Source: Erysipelotrichaceae bacterium
GTDB lineage: Bacteria; Bacillota_I; Bacilli_A; Erysipelotrichales; Erysipelotrichaceae
Assembly: GCA_963663995.1 (NCBI GenBank)
Contig: OY760660.1
Coordinates: 990,001-1,022,000 of the forward strand
Direction of reading: 5' to 3'
DNA length: 32,000 nucleotides
Below the pieces are notes generated by a model that was not told where the DNA came from, did no database searches, and worked only from the letters and a program-made list of their open reading frames with translations. Made by a program: the position numbers and the translations under genes. Positions within the stretch are counted from its first letter, which is position 1; every line of letters begins with the position of its first letter. This document shows, one piece after another, positions 6,655-31,237 of this stretch.

Positions 6655-8127
6655 TTATCTTTTATCGCGTTTATTTGGGACAAAGTCACCAGTTTCTATC
6701 ATCCGATAGAGTAGTTTAGAACGCATCAGTTCAATTTGTCCTTGATACTCTGGCGCATCAATCACGTTATTGAGTTCTAGTGGATCTTTATCTAGATCAT
6801 AGAATTCATGTTTTTCATATAATCGATACGTATATTTGAAGTTCTTCATCCGTACCATAATTGCTTTGGTATGTTCAGGTCCTTCTGATCCTTGTGTACT
6901 TAAACGAGGATAGTATGGCGATTCAGGTCCATGTCCTCTTTCCATCGCTTGTGTTTCACCATGAATACGTCCACCTTCACATAAAACTAATTCTTTATGT
7001 TCAGGATTCCCTGCAATCGCATCAACTAAGGATTTTCCAAATTGTGTATAAGGCAATTCGACCCCTGTCATTTCAGACACCGTCGCACTCAAGTCTGCAA
7101 GTTCCACTAAAGCTTTAGACACACCTGTCTTCACTTTAAAATCTTTGGATGGTTTTACGATAAGTGGAACCTTACAAACAGGGTCATCAAAGAGGTTTTG
7201 TGCTTTTTCAGCTACCCCATAATCCGTTGTGTAATCTCCATGATCACTAAATATAAAGACTGAACTATTATCATAGAAATCATGTTCTTTTAACTTATCC
7301 ATGAGTTGACCAAACTGTTCATCAAAACGCATGGTCATCGCAAGATAGGTTGCGCGAAGTTCAGAAAACCACGCTTCATCAAAGGCTTCTTCTAATCCTT
7401 GTTTCCCTACAATAGATGTCATCATCGATGGTTTATCCTTTAAGGTTCTCGCATCAGGACGACGAGCTAGTAATTTACTTCGATCAATGGCTGAATAATA
7501 AGGTTCTTCACATTGATAAGGAGGATGTGGATATATGAGTGTTATATAGATAAAGAAAGGTTTATCATTTCCACTTTTTGCTTTTCTATCAAGATAGTCC
7601 ATTGCGCTTTTTAAACAATTTTTATCCATCATGGAAAAGCTATCATCCCCTTCAACTTTTCCTACATAAAAGGAATAGAGTTCAGGTGATGGTTCAACTG
7701 GGTCGTGACCATGACCTTTAAACCCAGGATTTACTGGAGGTTCTACTTGACTTTCAAAACTTGCTCCACTGTAATATTCATGACAATAAGCTGCTTTAGA
7801 TTGATCCGCTGGAATAACATCATTACGACCAATCCAAATGACTTCATAACCAGCATCTTTCATCACTTTTAGAATGTTTGGATCATCTTGAGCAGTTAAA
7901 TAATGCATTGTACGATGCCCTCTTGTATGAGGATAGAGTCCCGATAAGAAACTGTGACGTGATGGAACACAAACTGGATTTTGGCAGTAGGCATTCTCAA
8001 ATGAAATCGCATCTGTTTCAACAATTTTGTCAAAACAAGGCGTTAAAGAAGCAGGATTCCCATGGTGCCCAAGGGAATCGCTGCGCATTTGATCAGCTAC
8101 GAAATAAACAATATTTGGTTGATTCAC
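6655..8127 (-). CDS. Cys-type (formylglycine-dependent) sulfatase, no signal peptide
   Basis: The N-terminus goes straight into the conserved first strand, PNIVYFVADQMRSD (metal-binding D/Q). The formylglycine signature C-V-P-S-R-HSFLSG has Cys53 at 7971..7969. The conserved FIFSDHGD metal/sulfate site is also present. GTG start at 8127 with AGGAG 8 nt upstream. No hydrophobic leader or lipobox is present. Confidence 0.9.
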   Translation of the reverse strand: MNQPNIVYFVADQMRSDSLGHHGNPASLTPCFDKIVETDAISFENAYCQNPVCVPSRHSFLSGLYPHTRGHRTMHYLTAQDDPNILKVMKDAGYEVIWIGRNDVIPADQSKAAYCHEYYSGASFESQVEPPVNPGFKGHGHDPVEPSPELYSFYVGKVEGDDSFSMMDKNCLKSAMDYLDRKAKSGNDKPFFIYITLIYPHPPYQCEEPYYSAIDRSKLLARRPDARTLKDKPSMMTSIVGKQGLEEAFDEAWFSELRATYLAMTMRFDEQFGQLMDKLKEHDFYDNSSVFIFSDHGDYTTDYGVAEKAQNLFDDPVCKVPLIVKPSKDFKVKTGVSKALVELADLSATVSEMTGVELPYTQFGKSLVDAIAGNPEHKELVLCEGGRIHGETQAMERGHGPESPYYPRLSTQGSEGPEHTKAIMVRMKNFKYTYRLYEKHEFYDLDKDPLELNNVIDAPEYQGQIELMRSKLLYRMIETGDFVPNKRDKR

Positions 8128-10430: not shown

Positions 10431-11525
10431 TTATTTAAGATTATTCGCTATTTCCATCATGCTTTTATGAGCATGTTCTAAAAAGACTTGATAACCACAA
10501 TAGCCATTATCATCGAAGTAAACAATATTCATACGTTTACAGTTACCATGACAAATATTTTTAAATTTACATGTATTACATGCTGTACTCATTCGTTTGT
10601 CTTCCTTTAAGAATTCATGCAAAACACTACTTTTATGTAATTGCGATAATGAATCAGTTGTGATATTTCCGATTTTATACTCATCTAATACATAGAAATC
10701 ACAGGGAAATACATCCCCATTAGATTCAATCACCATTTGCGCAGAACAATACCCTAACATTCCACACATTTGTGGACGCACACCAATAAACATTGGAATG
10801 ATATTATCAAATAGTCCAACTGATAAATAGTTATCCTTTTGATATTCATCTTTCCATAAGTCGTAGAACACTTTATAAAAAGATGCGAATGATTGAGGCG
10901 TCAATGCTGCACTATTATCTTTTAAATCAAAATCAGGCAAACATGGAATCAATTGAACATGATCGAATCCTTCTTTTTGATAGAATTCAAATAAATCTTT
11001 AGGTGATTGTGCTAATCCTTCTGTTAATACTGTTAAAACATTAAAATCTATTTCAGCATCTTTCAAACATTGAATACCCTTCATAACTTTTTCAAATGTT
11101 TTGCCATCATGTGATATTCGATATTTATTATGATTTATCTCAAATCCATCTAAACTAATTCCCACTAAAAAATCATTCTCTTTAAATAGTTTTGTCCATT
11201 CTTCATTCAGTAATGTTCCATTAGTTTGAATAGCATAATGGATATTTTGATTATCTTTTTTTATTTGGTTTACCTTGTCGATAAAATAGTAGAAATAATC
11301 TATTCCAGCTAATGTTGGTTCGCCACCTTGAAAAGCAAAAGTAATATCGCTTCCATCCTCTACATCCAGTGTTTTATTGACTAAAATATCAACTGTTTCA
11401 TAAGTCATATTTCCAAACGAAAACTGCTGACGATGATCAGCAACATCATTATAAAAACAATAAGTACATTTTAAATTACATGCAGCAGATGCTGGCTTAA
11501 TTAAATAACTATAAGATTGAGGCAT
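10431..11525 (-). CDS. Anaerobic sulfatase-maturating enzyme (radical SAM, SPASM domain)
   Basis: The N-terminus YLIKPASAACNLKCTYCFY carries the CX3CX2C motif (C16/C20/C23). The GGEPTL glycine-rich SAM motif is present. C-terminal Cys clusters (CGMLGYC..., FPCDFY, CNTCKFKNICHGNCKR) are typical of the two auxiliary 4Fe-4S clusters of anSME. Confidence 0.9.
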   Translation of the reverse strand: MPQSYSYLIKPASAACNLKCTYCFYNDVADHRQQFSFGNMTYETVDILVNKTLDVEDGSDITFAFQGGEPTLAGIDYFYYFIDKVNQIKKDNQNIHYAIQTNGTLLNEEWTKLFKENDFLVGISLDGFEINHNKYRISHDGKTFEKVMKGIQCLKDAEIDFNVLTVLTEGLAQSPKDLFEFYQKEGFDHVQLIPCLPDFDLKDNSAALTPQSFASFYKVFYDLWKDEYQKDNYLSVGLFDNIIPMFIGVRPQMCGMLGYCSAQMVIESNGDVFPCDFYVLDEYKIGNITTDSLSQLHKSSVLHEFLKEDKRMSTACNTCKFKNICHGNCKRMNIVYFDDNGYCGYQVFLEHAHKSMMEIANNLK

Positions 11526-27004: not shown

Positions 27005-28906
27005 TTAGTTCCAATCAATAATACGAATAAATTCTTCATAATCCTTAACATTGATCGCTTTTTGAATTTCTTTCGCATCGGTTAAGAAGTGTGCACTCTT
27101 CGCAAAGAAAGTGTCTAAGTTATCAGTTTCTGTATCACCATAACTCAACATAAAGACAAGTTGAACCTCTCTTTCACGCCATTTAATTGCTTCTTTTAAA
27201 ACCGCAACAGATACTATAGTATGTGCGGTAAATGATTTATCTGGATGTGGTATCGCAATCAGATTACCAAATTCTGTACTAGCCAGCCCTTCTCTTGCTA
27301 AACAAGATTCATAGAAACCTTCTTTAACCCCATAAAGTTCTGTAATCTTATTAGACATGAAATATATGATTTCTTCTTTTGTTTTTCCTTCAAAATCTTT
27401 AAAGAATAAACGACGATCAAAAAACTCAGCAATAGACAAATGATCTTCACTGAAACGCAGTTTGATTGATTGAACATCTTTATCATCTAATAGTGAAGAT
27501 ATGTAAATAATAGGCTTTGTGGTTTTGACACGTAACGGAACTGTTGACACGATTAAATCAAATTTTTCTAAATTCATTTTTTGTATGGTTAAAGCATCAA
27601 TCGTTTGAACATCATCTAAATATGCCTCAAACTCTTTTTTAAAACGATAATTCAAAAGTTTTGCAGTCCCATGACCCGTCGCACAGACCAATAAGACTTT
27701 CTTCTTGTTGGTATTTTCTTTATGTCTTTCCAGTGCGACATAGAAATGTAGGGCAAAATATGCAACTTCATCTTCAGCTAAACGGGTATTATAAATACGC
27801 TCTATTTCTTCAGTCGCAACTTTAGCAATTAAAAAAGCTTGTTTATGTTTTTTTATATCAATAAGGAGTGGATTTTTTAGAAGTAAACGATATTGAATAC
27901 GTTTAATTAAGGGAACACAATGTAAACCCAAAGCAATTCTTAAATCGAGATCTTTACTGAAGTCAATCTCAAAAATATAATTAATGCGCTCGATCATTTT
28001 TTGAACCAATTGGTCTACTTCACTACTCACCACATTAGAGCTTTCACCCCCTGCAAAAACTCTTTTACCCGATAGATGCATGGTGATATAGCCTTGTTCA
28101 TCCTCTGGGAAAGCTATATTAAAACTGATTTTCATTCGTTCTATTATTTTTTTCGCTATCTTATACTCATCATTGAGTTTTAATTCTTCAAGCGATTCAC
28201 TATCCATTAATATAGGTTCACCAATTTTAATGCGTTCTAGGGCGATAAATAAATGTGTTATTAAGTTCTCAAAAATAATTTCACTGGTTTCATAATTGAA
28301 TTCATCAAAGACCACTAAAACGTTTTTACGAATTTGTTCCATGACCCATTGTGTTTCAAATTCGACATCAGCATCTGGTAAAGAATTTTCATTGTAGAGA
28401 ACATTAGCGATACATAAACGCAAATTCATCTCACTACCCACCAAACGAATACCATAATTTGGTCGAACTTCTAGTTGAACATGAAAAGGCTCAATTTTAT
28501 CTTTTAAATTATTTAAATCTAAACTAAGTTGGGAGCGTGATATTTGAAGTTCATCACATAGATCTACAGCTGAAAAATAGTTCTTTTTAAAAGCGAGCTT
28601 TTTTAATAGATAATGAACACGATTACCTTTATCACTCAAACTTGAATCATCAAAGGCAAATTCATGCCATTTTGTCGCTATAAAATTTCTGAATGGTTCA
28701 ACATCACTAATTTCGAAGCGAAAACCAAAACCTGCTTTTGAGATAATGCTTGCGCCATTTCTTTCAAATATATTATTTAAAACTTTGATCTCATTACGTA
28801 TCGTTTTTGAGCTAACAGAAAGAAGTGAAGATATTTCTTCACTGGTCATATAATGTTCTTGATTACTTAATAAATCAAAGATTTTCTTTATCCGAGTTTC
28901 TTTCAT
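27005..28906 (-). CDS. LicR/MtlR-type PRD-containing transcriptional regulator (HTH - PRD - PRD - EIIB-like - EIIA-like)
   Basis: N-terminal HTH (MTSEEISSLLSVSSKTIRNEIKVLN). Two PRD-like regions (ITHLFIALERIK, VAYFALHFYVALERHK). EIIB-like VLLVCATGHGTAKLL and EIIA(Mtl/Fru)-like GNLIAIPHP. There is no CAT RNA-binding domain and no sigma-54 AAA+ module. Confidence 0.85.
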   Translation of the reverse strand: MKETRIKKIFDLLSNQEHYMTSEEISSLLSVSSKTIRNEIKVLNNIFERNGASIISKAGFGFRFEISDVEPFRNFIATKWHEFAFDDSSLSDKGNRVHYLLKKLAFKKNYFSAVDLCDELQISRSQLSLDLNNLKDKIEPFHVQLEVRPNYGIRLVGSEMNLRLCIANVLYNENSLPDADVEFETQWVMEQIRKNVLVVFDEFNYETSEIIFENLITHLFIALERIKIGEPILMDSESLEELKLNDEYKIAKKIIERMKISFNIAFPEDEQGYITMHLSGKRVFAGGESSNVVSSEVDQLVQKMIERINYIFEIDFSKDLDLRIALGLHCVPLIKRIQYRLLLKNPLLIDIKKHKQAFLIAKVATEEIERIYNTRLAEDEVAYFALHFYVALERHKENTNKKKVLLVCATGHGTAKLLNYRFKKEFEAYLDDVQTIDALTIQKMNLEKFDLIVSTVPLRVKTTKPIIYISSLLDDKDVQSIKLRFSEDHLSIAEFFDRRLFFKDFEGKTKEEIIYFMSNKITELYGVKEGFYESCLAREGLASTEFGNLIAIPHPDKSFTAHTIVSVAVLKEAIKWREREVQLVFMLSYGDTETDNLDTFFAKSAHFLTDAKEIQKAINVKDYEEFIRIIDWN

Positions 28907-29047: not shown

Positions 29048-30217
29048 TTAGTTTTCTAAGAATTGAACAATGTCCAAATCTTTAATCAATTTAAACATTT
29101 CCATTTCTTGATCAGAGATATGCCCAATTAAATTACGCATTCCATCATTTTTGATAGGACACAATACTACTTGTACTTCTGATGAATAATGTTCATATTC
29201 ATTGTTTACCATGACCACATCACCTCTGACAAATTCAGTTTGTGATACTTTACGTTGAGGAACTTTCCCATGGAAGAAGAAGCGCGGAATACGATTACGC
29301 CAGATCCATTCACTACTATCACCCATATCTATATGTGGAAAGAAATTAAGTAAAACTTCTTTTTCCACATCTGTTATTTCTTTAACCAAATCAACTTTAA
29401 CTTTCTTAACTGCTGGCATTTCTTTTTTCATAAAGAAGGATGCAAATGGCAATTTCTCAAGATAGGTCATATCTGGTTCAACCGCTTTAATCGCTTCATT
29501 GATCAAATCAAATTCCGCATCACTCGCAAAAGCATTTCCAATCATTATTTCATCAATAAGATCTGTCGCAAGCATTTCTCTTACTTGTAGATCAATTGGA
29601 AGATCTCTCATTTTTTCAACAGTTGGTAAACCATAAATCGAATCCCAGACGCCATGTGTATTTTCAGCATGCGAACTAACAAACGCACCTACGCGAATTT
29701 CTGCTTCTTTAAACTCTTTAGAAACATGTAGGAATTTATCCCACTTCATACCTGTATATGTTTGTGGATAAAAATTATGACTAACTAAAATATTTTCTTT
29801 TTTCGCACCTTTTTCAATTAGTTCTTTTATATAAGAAGCTTTTAAAGCGGATGCATTAAATTCAATTTGAATATTTTCTTTATTATTAATAACTTCTACA
29901 TCACCCTCTAAGCCATAAGACATATCCATGCGAAGAATATCGATTCCCATTTTCTTAAAAAGACTTAGATCACTCGATTTCACACTTAAACGTTCGAATA
30001 GTTCTGGATTAACATCCACACTCATCAACATCTGACATTCATGACATTTAGTTGTCATATCAGTAAACATCTTAATGACATTTTCTGGGTTGTCCTTAAC
30101 CGAAAACATGCTAGAGAACACTCTTTTAAAACCAGCATTTGATGCCTTTTCCATATAAGCATAGATATCTTCTACACTTGCGACATCTGGATAAATTGAT
30201 ATACCTAATGATTTCAT
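29048..30217 (-). CDS. DUF871 / MupG-family TIM-barrel protein (6-phospho-glycosidase-like, 'PTS-associated protein')
   Basis: The N-terminus MKSLGISIYPDVASVEDIYAYMEKASNAGFKRVFSSMF is typical of the DUF871 family, recognised from memory. RBS TAAGGAG. 389 aa. Confidence 0.7.
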   Translation of the reverse strand: MKSLGISIYPDVASVEDIYAYMEKASNAGFKRVFSSMFSVKDNPENVIKMFTDMTTKCHECQMLMSVDVNPELFERLSVKSSDLSLFKKMGIDILRMDMSYGLEGDVEVINNKENIQIEFNASALKASYIKELIEKGAKKENILVSHNFYPQTYTGMKWDKFLHVSKEFKEAEIRVGAFVSSHAENTHGVWDSIYGLPTVEKMRDLPIDLQVREMLATDLIDEIMIGNAFASDAEFDLINEAIKAVEPDMTYLEKLPFASFFMKKEMPAVKKVKVDLVKEITDVEKEVLLNFFPHIDMGDSSEWIWRNRIPRFFFHGKVPQRKVSQTEFVRGDVVMVNNEYEHYSSEVQVVLCPIKNDGMRNLIGHISDQEMEMFKLIKDLDIVQFLEN

Positions 30218-30370
30218 GTTTAAACTCCTTATTATTTAATGGTTCGTCTATTTAAATCATAGCACTTTGATGAATGTGAATTGATACTTAAAACAAAGTT
30301 TTATCTAAATAATGCTTTACTTTATCACTTTATTATAGTAAAGTAGTAAAGTATTTAAGGAGAGTCTGCG

Positions 30371-30442
30371 ATGAATACAAAACATTACACACATCACACA
30401 TCTTCTCACCACCATCATTTGATGGCTTTTTGCGTTATCTAA
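30371..30442 (+). CDS. his operon leader peptide (23 aa, 7 His codons)
   Basis: Not in the ORF track because it is too short. TAAGGAGAG lies 6 nt upstream of the ATG. The ORF reads atg aat aca aaa CAT tac aca CAT CAC aca tct tct CAC CAC CAT CAT ttg atg gct ttt tgc gtt atc taa = MNTKHYTHHTSSHHHHLMAFCVI. It lies 88 nt upstream of hisG and is followed by a terminator. Confidence 0.7.
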   Translation: MNTKHYTHHTSSHHHHLMAFCVI

Positions 30443-30482
30443 ACTGTAATAAACATTACAAACACTTAGGTATGCGCAAGAA
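30427..30482 (+). promoter_or_regulatory. Candidate antiterminator helix of the his attenuator
   Basis: By hand, TTTTTGCG (30427-34) pairs with CGCAAGAA (30475-82), and TATCTAA (30436-42, including the leader stop codon) pairs with TTAGGTA (30466-72). An inner hairpin TGTAAT-AAAC-ATTACA spans 30445-60. The 3' arm consumes the 5' arm of the terminator. Confidence 0.5.
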
Positions 30483-30499
30483 AATCTTGCGCTTTTTTT
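30474..30499 (+). terminator. Attenuator terminator upstream of hisG
   Basis: GCGCAAG-AAAAT-CTTGCGC followed by T7, 31 nt before the hisG ATG. It lies inside a 5' leader rather than at a gene's 3' end. Confidence 0.8.
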
Positions 30500-30529
30500 A
30501 TAAAATAACCCTATAGGAGAAAATAACTT

Positions 30530-31237
30530 ATGAATACCATTACCATTGCTTTACCAAAAGGAAAAAGACTTCTTGGATCAGCTTATGATATTTTCAAGAA
30601 TGCTGGGATTACATCTGCATTATTAGAATCGGAAATGAAAGATGCGAAAGGAAAACTTTTAGAGTTTAAATCAGATTGTGGAAACTATAACTTCATCTTA
30701 CTTAAAGTGGCCGATATTCCTCAATACATTGATCGAAACTGGGCAGAACTTGGTGTCGCAGCCTTTGATAACTATCGTGAGTATGAGTTAGAAAATGCTA
30801 CTTTAAAAAACAGTTTACGAGGTGATAACTTTGCTTCTGATTTACTCCCTGATTTAGAACTATGTCCACAATCTCGTTTCTGTGTAGCAGGCCGTCCTGA
30901 AGTATTAGACTTTTATGAAAGTTGTAAGAATAGTGAAGAAAAAATCTTAACGGTTGCGACTTCAAATCCAGCCATTGCCAATCACTATTTCACTACAAAA
31001 GGGATCATTGCCGATATTATCACGATTGGTGGATCATCTGAAGTTATGCCTAAGTTTGGGAATGTTGATTGTATTTTCGATATTGTTGAAAGTGGTAGAG
31101 CTTTAAAAGAAAATGGTTTAATTATCTTTGAAGAAGCAATGCAAATCAAAACAAAAGTATTATTTTCAAAAGCTGCTTTAAAATATAGTGAGAAAGCACA
31201 AAAAATTATGGAGGTGCTCAGTAATGCGCTTCAATAA
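30530..31237 (+). CDS. hisG: ATP phosphoribosyltransferase, short-form-like (no C-terminal regulatory domain)
   Basis: ITIALPKGKRL N-terminus, LLKVADIPQYIDRNWAELGVAAFD, ...VATSNPAIANHYF..., GGSSEVMPKFGNVDCIFDIVESGRALKENGL. RBS TAGGAGAAAA. 235 aa. Confidence 0.85.
   Translation: MNTITIALPKGKRLLGSAYDIFKNAGITSALLESEMKDAKGKLLEFKSDCGNYNFILLKVADIPQYIDRNWAELGVAAFDNYREYELENATLKNSLRGDNFASDLLPDLELCPQSRFCVAGRPEVLDFYESCKNSEEKILTVATSNPAIANHYFTTKGIIADIITIGGSSEVMPKFGNVDCIFDIVESGRALKENGLIIFEEAMQIKTKVLFSKAALKYSEKAQKIMEVLSNALQ

Follow-up and report, generated by a model that had tools for sequence, protein, structure and literature searches.

The 32-kb stretch of DNA analysed here (the window, meaning the whole stretch; all coordinates are counted from its position 1), from contig OY760660.1 of an Erysipelotrichaceae bacterium, is predicted computationally, and with good confidence, to carry a histidine (His)-responsive, ribosome-mediated (leader-peptide) transcription attenuator of the hisGDCBH operon. 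An earlier sequence-only reading had proposed a ribosome-mediated terminator/antiterminator switch that senses His codons, and this core is supported by the folding of nascent RNA, by ribosome masking, by five relatives and by the pattern of conservation. The leader and the his genes behind it have the following features:

30356-30364, + strand: Shine–Dalgarno (SD) sequence of the leader open reading frame (ORF), TAAGGAGAG, read from the sequence; GGAG lies 8 nt before the ATG
30371-30442, + strand: leader ORF, MNTKHYTHHTSSHHHHLMAFCVI and stop; 23 sense codons, ATG at 30371, stop codon at 30440-42
30412-30425 (30412-16/30421-25), + strand: hairpin P1, CCAUC-AUUU-GAUGG, a terminator-like match in the consensus scan
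30427-30442, + strand: 5' strand of the antiterminator, UUUUUGCGUUAUCUAA, spanning the final 5 sense codons of the leader ORF and its stop codon
30445-30460 (30445-50/30455-60), + strand: inner hairpin, UGUAAU-AAAC-AUUACA, part of both states
30466-30482, + strand: 3' strand of the antiterminator, of which 30474-82 overlaps the 5' arm of the terminator
30474-30499, + strand: intrinsic terminator, GCGCAAGA/TCTTGCGC, loop AAA, T7; 8-bp stem with 5 G-C, from the consensus scan
30515-20: SD of hisG, read from the sequence
30530-31237, + strand: hisG, 235 amino acids (aa), first regulated gene; PF01634, TIGR00070
Start at 31224: hisD, following hisG; PF00815, TIGR00069

His accounts for 7 of the 23 leader codons (positions 5, 8, 9 and 13-16), with a run of four at codons 13-16 (CAC CAC CAT CAT, 30407-30418). 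CAYx4 occurs a single time in the window, against 0.08 occurrences expected, and lies just upstream of hisG. The 23-codon ORF, its seven His codons, the HHHH run and the strong SD were all found where the sequence-only reading had placed them, and the leader does stand immediately upstream of hisG and hisD, both of which gave Pfam and NCBIfam matches.

The terminator, with its arms at 30474-81 (GCGCAAGA) and 30485-92 (UCUUGCGC) and its T7 at 30493-99, ends 30 nt before the hisG start. Its stem, T7 and place are as first described, whereas its distance from the leader stop codon is 31 nt and not 32 nt. The consensus scan of 29800-30800 returned two terminator-like sites against 0.3 expected, one being the his terminator and the other P1. 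In the competing structure, 30427-42 pairs with 30466-82 over 16 bp with a single bulged U (30473) and encloses the inner hairpin; this is the form in which folding recovered the antiterminator of 15-16 bp originally drawn by hand. Because 30474-82 is shared by both, terminator and antiterminator are mutually exclusive. The unconstrained fold of 30405-30493 (-23.7 kcal/mol) contains P1, a lower stem (30436-42/30466-72), the inner hairpin and the terminator, and in the antiterminator state (-22.8 kcal/mol) the lower stem gains nine pairs (30427-35/30474-82, with U30473 bulged). Lower stem and inner hairpin are common to both states, and only the pairing direction of 30474-82 differs. The antiterminator is the minimum-free-energy (MFE) structure at every nascent length up to 30490; being the best nascent fold and lying within 0.9 kcal/mol of the terminator state, it proved competitive, a point on which the sequence-only reading had staked its model. 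When 30405-30473 was shuffled 1000 times, with dinucleotides preserved and the terminator left in place, 165 of the shuffled sequences sequestered 7 or 8 of the 8 terminator-arm bases in truncated RNA, and in none (0/1000) did the antiterminator come within 1 kcal/mol of the full-length MFE; the native leader sequesters 8/8 bases and differs by 0.9 kcal/mol. The energetics and the 0/1000 shuffles therefore indicate that the antiterminator is real, competitive and not a product of chance.

The effect of translation was modelled by masking the RNA under a ribosome whose footprint began 18 nt 5' of the A-site codon and reached 9-13 nt beyond it. When the A site was placed anywhere from codon 17 to the stop codon, the probability of the antiterminator fell to 0.000-0.006, and it was 0 from codon 18 onward. 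The corresponding probability was 0.15 without a ribosome and, when a ribosome was stalled on His13-16, approximately 0.03-0.16 in eleven of the twelve cases. From the first base of the last His codon to the antiterminator strand there are 11 nt (7-13 nt in relatives), and with the A site on His13-16, P1 was melted and the antiterminator strand (from 30427) was left wholly or largely free. Masking as suggested by the sequence-only reading thus gave one of the two outcomes foreseen, since a terminating ribosome abolished the antiterminator, but read-through in the stalled state was not obtained at equilibrium.

The close relatives of this HisG are represented by metagenomic sequence or metagenome-assembled genomes (MAGs) only, the closest named one being OY781039.1, from a MAG labelled Erysipelotrichaceae bacterium, with 89% HisG identity. 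Five distinct relatives, with hisG 67-89% identical, all have a His-rich leader ORF and a P1-type hairpin, and the stop codon lies inside the 5' strand of the antiterminator in all six leaders, that of the window included:

L001/L031: HisG 89% identical; leader MTVYSTHTHHHSTHHQMMVFCVI
L002-4 and L033-35: HisG 87% identical; leader MFTSNTHQHHHSHHHHLMDFCVI
L039/L122: HisG 87% identical; leader ending in HHHHIHHHHMVFCVIH; the 5' part of the contig is probably chimeric
L036: HisG 78% identical; leader METKYITDYSEFHHQHMLIFCVLR
L038: HisG 67% identical; leader MIKKGTQSFNSLHHHHGMVDFALPVMI

SD-like sequences occupy the equivalent place in L001, L002, L036 and L038, and the gene order is hisG-D-C-B-H in L001 and L002. 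In L039, the GC-rich sequence 5' of the leader (737-960) codes in a different frame for a fragment of a membrane protein and is joined at a duplicated CACCATCATCAC; this contig (coverage 1.2) is probably an assembly chimera at the His-codon repeat, and its 3' part is confirmed by L122. In L038, a second hairpin with a T-run (AAAGACGCGAG...CUUGCGUCUUUUU, approximately 1427-1465) directly follows the attenuator terminator, giving tandem terminators.

When the leaders were folded singly, mutually exclusive antiterminator and terminator structures were found in all six. For the window, L001 and L002, the terminator state was the more stable by 0.1-0.9 kcal/mol, and for L038 by 3.5 kcal/mol, whereas the antiterminator was favoured by 7.4 kcal/mol in L036 and 2.9 kcal/mol in L039. 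The core UUUGCG/CGCAAG of the antiterminator is invariant among the leaders, as expected because both structures constrain it. In the lower stem, unrelated sequences still pair (AUCUAA/UUAGGU, UCGA/UCGA, UUGAAG/CUUUAA), and the inner hairpin is formed by UGUAAU/AUUACA in the window, AGUAAUU/GAUUACU in L002, GGUUU/AAACC in L036 and a GUAU-type stem in L039. The terminator is kept in all relatives, with a double change of its closing pair from G-C to A-U in L036 and L039. On the five-leader alignment, 83% of antiterminator cells and 81% of terminator cells are paired, compared to 30-50% in slid controls. Between the window and L001 and L002, the 5' strand of the antiterminator is 100% identical, third positions included, and the terminator region is 88-91% identical, whereas the third codon positions of hisG are 64% (L001) and 62% (L002) identical and the stretch from the SD to leader codon 12 is only 31-45% identical. 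The conservation of antiterminator and terminator alongside a drifting N-terminal ORF thus points to selection on the RNA element and the His-codon run, not on the peptide.

These results bear directly on the idea that the ORF arose by chance beside an ordinary leaky terminator or 5' untranslated region structure, or that its product is a functional His-rich micropeptide. AT-rich intergenic DNA does commonly contain short ORFs and hairpins, and formal covariation is weak. However, the only CAYx4 of the window stands exactly upstream of hisG, 31 of the 100 distinct regions surveyed upstream of this type of hisG contain a His-rich ORF, no shuffle reproduced the competing helix, and, as to a micropeptide, the N-terminus is not conserved while the C-terminal conservation is at the nucleotide level. 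We therefore regard both versions as scarcely credible, the least probable of the explanations considered here.

Hairpin P1 pairs the His CAU codons with the downstream Leu and Met (AUG) codons and is followed by the U-run CTTTTTG. Its pairing probability was 0.94 in free RNA and 0 with a ribosome on His13-16. Equivalents of P1 stand just 5' of the U-run in L001, L002, L036 and L039, with a longer His-codon helix in L038; in all six leaders, a hairpin of His codons and the following AUG codon ends 0-2 nt before the U-run, and two pairs of P1 are changed on both sides among relatives. P1 is thus probably a pause or synchronisation hairpin melted by the translating ribosome. The sequence-only reading had seen no 1:2-type pause hairpin, a statement that must be withdrawn given that P1 was flagged by the terminator scan and is kept in relatives. 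Because P1 does not overlap the 5' strand of the antiterminator, this leader shows no evident super-attenuation state of the classical 1:2 kind. In L038, the long helix formed by the His codons and the end of the ORF also encloses the antiterminator strand and is a classical 1:2 element.

Considering these structures, the attenuator may work as follows. The antiterminator would be the first structure to form on the emerging RNA, making read-through the default. P1 and its U-run would probably pause RNA polymerase until a ribosome arrives and melts P1, a pause that would keep transcription and translation in step. When His-tRNA is plentiful, the ribosome would reach the stop codon and cover 30427-42 while RNA polymerase transcribes 30474-99, so that only the terminator could form and transcription would stop. 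When His-tRNA is scarce, the ribosome would stall at His codons 13-16 (or 5, 8 or 9) with its leading edge short of 30427, allowing the antiterminator to form and hisG-hisD to be transcribed. While the attenuator as such is likely, the chances that its specific default-ON and pause details are as sketched here are about even.

Several observations weigh against this interpretation. The full-length leader at equilibrium favours the terminator (probability 0.84-0.97), whether or not a ribosome is stalled on His codons. Since equilibrium prefers the terminator even with a His-stalled ribosome, the switch has to be kinetic, and the discrimination of His levels would rest on a kinetic argument drawn from the folding model. 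A clean equilibrium switch did appear when a long context was folded with ribosome masks; it was discarded as an artefact because the SD had paired spuriously with the 3' U-run, and a tighter context favours the terminator. As folding at equilibrium in a long context is artefactual, the model rests on nascent-RNA folding. Transcription and translation are largely uncoupled in Bacillus subtilis, and if the same is true of the present lineage, the timing of ribosome and polymerase would be harder to achieve. Column-wise covariation, assessed on MAFFT alignments of 5 leaders, was not significant (3-4 double-change pairs, which shuffles often match); the core helix is invariant, and the test was underpowered, with the middle helices of L036 and L039 misaligned. 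Conservation as foreseen by the sequence-only reading was thus obtained for the His run and both alternative helices in five relatives, but not for significant compensatory column changes, with 5 sequences only. A covariance model built from five leaders recovered only those five among 100 sources, leaving L038 and the termite-gut leaders described below undetected; the family defined by sequence is therefore narrow. Finally, no sigma-70-type promoter was found upstream on the + strand by consensus scan. The hand-picked putative candidates are TGcTTTACT at 30313-22 and TATTAT/TATAGT at 30331-39.

Neither the RF00514 His_leader model nor the T-box model matched anywhere in the window at gathering score or in 30200-30560 at E<=10, as the sequence-only reading had predicted, and no T-box or any other Rfam element was found in 20 sampled related loci. 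The weak Rfam matches at the leader (tsr26, snoRNAs) were rejected as chance matches. These negative results count against antitermination that is independent of translation, in which the antiterminator would be stabilised by uncharged tRNA-His (through a degenerate T-box) or by an RNA-binding protein, with the small ORF playing no part. Many his operons of Bacillota are under T-box control, those of 7 Erysipelotrichaceae among them (Ashniev et al., 2022; PMC9413887), and an antiterminator/terminator pair alone is no proof of sensing by a ribosome. However, the leader spans only approximately 140-145 nt and has neither a specifier loop nor a T-box sequence, and its His run, its SD, its start codon and the position of its stop codon within the antiterminator strand have been kept whereas the remainder of the ORF has diverged. 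Such translation-independent control is accordingly very improbable, if marginally less so than a chance ORF.

A further possibility concerns control at the level of initiation, for which one more feature is needed:

30326-30345, no strand assigned: palindrome CACTTTA-ttatag-TAAAGTA, CACTTTAttatagTAAAGTA, in the presumed promoter/5' end region; candidate HisR-type operator or core of a 5' stem-loop

Ashniev et al. (2022; PMC9413887) give the consensus of the HisR operator, cacTTTAnnnnnnTAAAgtg, as a 20-bp palindrome, cacTTTA-N6-TAAAgtg, and the site at 30326-45 matches it at 13 of 14 specified positions. It is also the only place in the window at which the 12-base core ACTTTA-N6-TAAAGT occurs with no mismatch. 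CTTTA-N6-TAAAG stands at the homologous place in L001-4, L031 and L033-35, and in these 87-89% relatives it overlaps an extended -10-like sequence, TGnTATACT. A TrpR-family HisR bound over the promoter and +1 could thus be the main or an additional regulator, in a dual control like that of E. coli trp; this would be compatible with the attenuator, not exclusive of it. Moreover, the relative L123, which has the same hisG type, carries a gene of the YerC/HisR family directly upstream of hisG. On the other side, no TrpR-family ORF and no hisR gene were found in the window (a tblastn search with HisR of L123 as query covered both the window and the loci), and no HisR homologue was found on the parent chromosomes (1.95 and 1.96 Mb) among 96 matches in a search of limited sensitivity. 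All 20 Erysipelotrichales genomes analysed by Ashniev et al. (2022; PMC9413887) lack HisR. In L036, the half-sites are 19 nt apart and not 6, and this variable spacing of the inverted repeat would be expected of a hairpin in RNA or DNA more than of a fixed operator; the palindrome is, besides, AT-rich in an AT-rich genome. We consider repressor control unlikely, although clearly less improbable than the two explanations discussed above.

A two-tier control would combine a HisR-type operator overlapping the promoter with a minimal default-ON attenuator that senses through a stop codon in the antiterminator strand and uses P1 and the U-run as a polymerase pause. This full combination is more doubtful still than a repressor acting at the palindrome. 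If true, it would be a trp-operon-like arrangement not reported for his genes in Bacillota, as well as direct evidence for functional transcription–translation coupling in this class. In the published survey (Ashniev et al., 2022; PMC9413887), every lineage in which his attenuators were found lacked HisR; a HisR-like operator together with an attenuator, if real, would revise this picture of mechanisms that are mutually exclusive across lineages.

Around the palindrome, three copies of CTTTA (30315-32) stand opposite a series of TAAAG-nnn repeats (30339-64, period 8 nt) whose final copy runs into the leader SD (30315-30364 overall). TAAAGnnnTAAAG, which immediately precedes the SD, is kept in L001, L002 and L036 and is a candidate ribosome standby site, 5' stem-loop or operator. 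Binding of a HutP-like protein to the TAAAG repeats as UAG repeats was rejected because UAG is not conserved; HutP, furthermore, controls catabolism.

Returning to the attenuator, its nearest classical counterpart is hisL of E. coli and Salmonella (RF00514), with which it shares a His-rich leader peptide, a terminator and antiterminator, a stalled ribosome that would favour read-through and a hairpin involving the regulatory codons that precedes the antiterminator. The hisL leader has seven His in a row, compared to four consecutive His, and 7 of 23 codons in all, in the present leader. The two also differ in that the covariance model gave no match here even at E<=10, that three helices stand in place of the multi-hairpin A-F scheme, and that the window leader has no obvious anti-antiterminator (super-attenuation) state, whereas the distant relative L038 has one.

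Ashniev et al. (2022; PMC9413887, BMC Genomics) searched Firmicutes his operons lacking HisR and T-boxes for attenuators and predicted some of the His-leader type in six species of Erysipelotrichales, in the B. cereus group and in Peptostreptococcaceae/Lutispora. In these, a short leader ORF with 3-5 His codons in succession immediately precedes the attenuator, terminator and antiterminator hairpins, and there was no RF00514 match. A His leader peptide had also been described in bacilli (Naville and Gautheret, 2010; PMC2965389). The novelty implied by the sequence-only reading is thus forestalled, His-leader attenuators having already been predicted in Bacillota, and the present leader is a further example of that attenuator type, on a hisG-first operon. 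On that paper's description, it resembles the published Erysipelotrichales leaders in the order to which its host belongs, in the logic of a leader ORF with a His run, in having no RF00514 match and in being a computational prediction. It differs in that those attenuators precede hisZGDCBHAF(IE), whereas here hisG (235 aa) comes first without hisZ, and none of the named HisG matches belongs to the six published species. Ribosome-mediated attenuation in a low-GC Gram-positive bacterium likewise applies to the S. aureus ilv-leu operon and, as predicted, to L. lactis leu, with a different amino acid and operon; for the ilv-leu Leu-leader attenuator, genetic support came from suppressor mutations in the leader peptide and terminator (Kaiser et al., 2018; PMC5794164). 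His T-boxes and HisR (YerC/TrpR-family) control serve the same pathway, and a HisR-like palindrome lies upstream here, but the window has no T-box match and no hisR. No experimental study of a Bacillota his attenuator was found in the literature searched.

The survey of 100 distinct regions upstream of the 235-aa hisG type drew mostly on termite-gut metagenomes and on MAGs labelled Oscillospiraceae, Clostridiales and others. The His-rich small ORF seen in 31 of them is usually followed by a terminator, and others have no leader. Most of the 31 belong to a separate leader family with the motif VHxHxGVHHHxHH, 25-37 aa in length, with long helices involving the His codons and with downstream terminators; in these leaders from termite-gut metagenomes and MAGs, a conserved hairpin, GUGCAUCAUCAUGCGCAC, presents a His triplet. 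A simple heuristic search gave no clear alternative (antiterminator) helix in the termite-gut leaders. The loci of this second family are:

L005, L010/L093, L014/L099, L015/L104, L018, L021, L040-L045, L050, L054, L055
L062, L063, L078, L081, L094, L100, L101, L103, L106, L119, L120

L043 (approximately 1040-1200) has a third leader type, MKFFNQFHHHKK, behind a canonical TTGACA-17-TATACT promoter, and its His codons, CCAUCAUCAUAAA, pair directly with the downstream UUUAUGAUGG in the classical 1:2 arrangement. L123 (52-321) has the 89-aa gene of the Trp_repressor/YerC family (HisR-type) directly upstream of a 67%-identical hisG and no leader ORF, and the nearest homologues of this repressor gene are labelled as Rickettsiales, Holosporales or Alphaproteobacteria MAGs. 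With a repressor gene in L123 and leaders elsewhere, the regulator attached to one and the same type of hisG therefore varies from host to host. HisG itself has a uniform 235-aa form consisting of the PF01634 catalytic domain only, with no adjacent hisZ, and shows 57-66% identity among MAGs labelled Clostridiales, Oscillospiraceae, Defluviitaleaceae, Endomicrobia, Synergistaceae, Puniceicoccales and Treponema, which suggests that the his operon with this HisG has spread horizontally among gut anaerobes.

In the window, mupG (29048-30217, minus strand) directly adjoins the leader region; a GGDEF-domain gene lies between mupG and the his leader in L001 (1108-2703) and L002 (1132-2726, split or truncated) and is absent from the window. 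The gene content of 1-29000 is ordinary for sugar-fermenting gut Bacillota. The window includes three phosphotransferase system (PTS) EIIC genes, two GH1 glycosidases and a PRD/Mga-type regulator (27005-28906), a sulfatase (6655-8127) with a radical-SAM/SPASM maturase (10431-11525), a fumarase, a malic enzyme, and an ArsR-type regulator with a P-type ATPase and CueP. No tRNA genes, and no Rfam elements at gathering score, were found in the window.

Bacillota His-leader attenuators have so far been computational predictions only, without an Rfam family, and the present leader adds to them a compact, well-resolved example of approximately 140-145 nt and three helices. The five relatives and the separate termite-gut family could seed a covariance model and thereby better annotation of his operons in gut Erysipelotrichaceae and Clostridia. 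Furthermore, because attenuation needs a ribosome close behind RNA polymerase, such leaders would be natural reporters of transcription–translation coupling in Bacillota outside B. subtilis.

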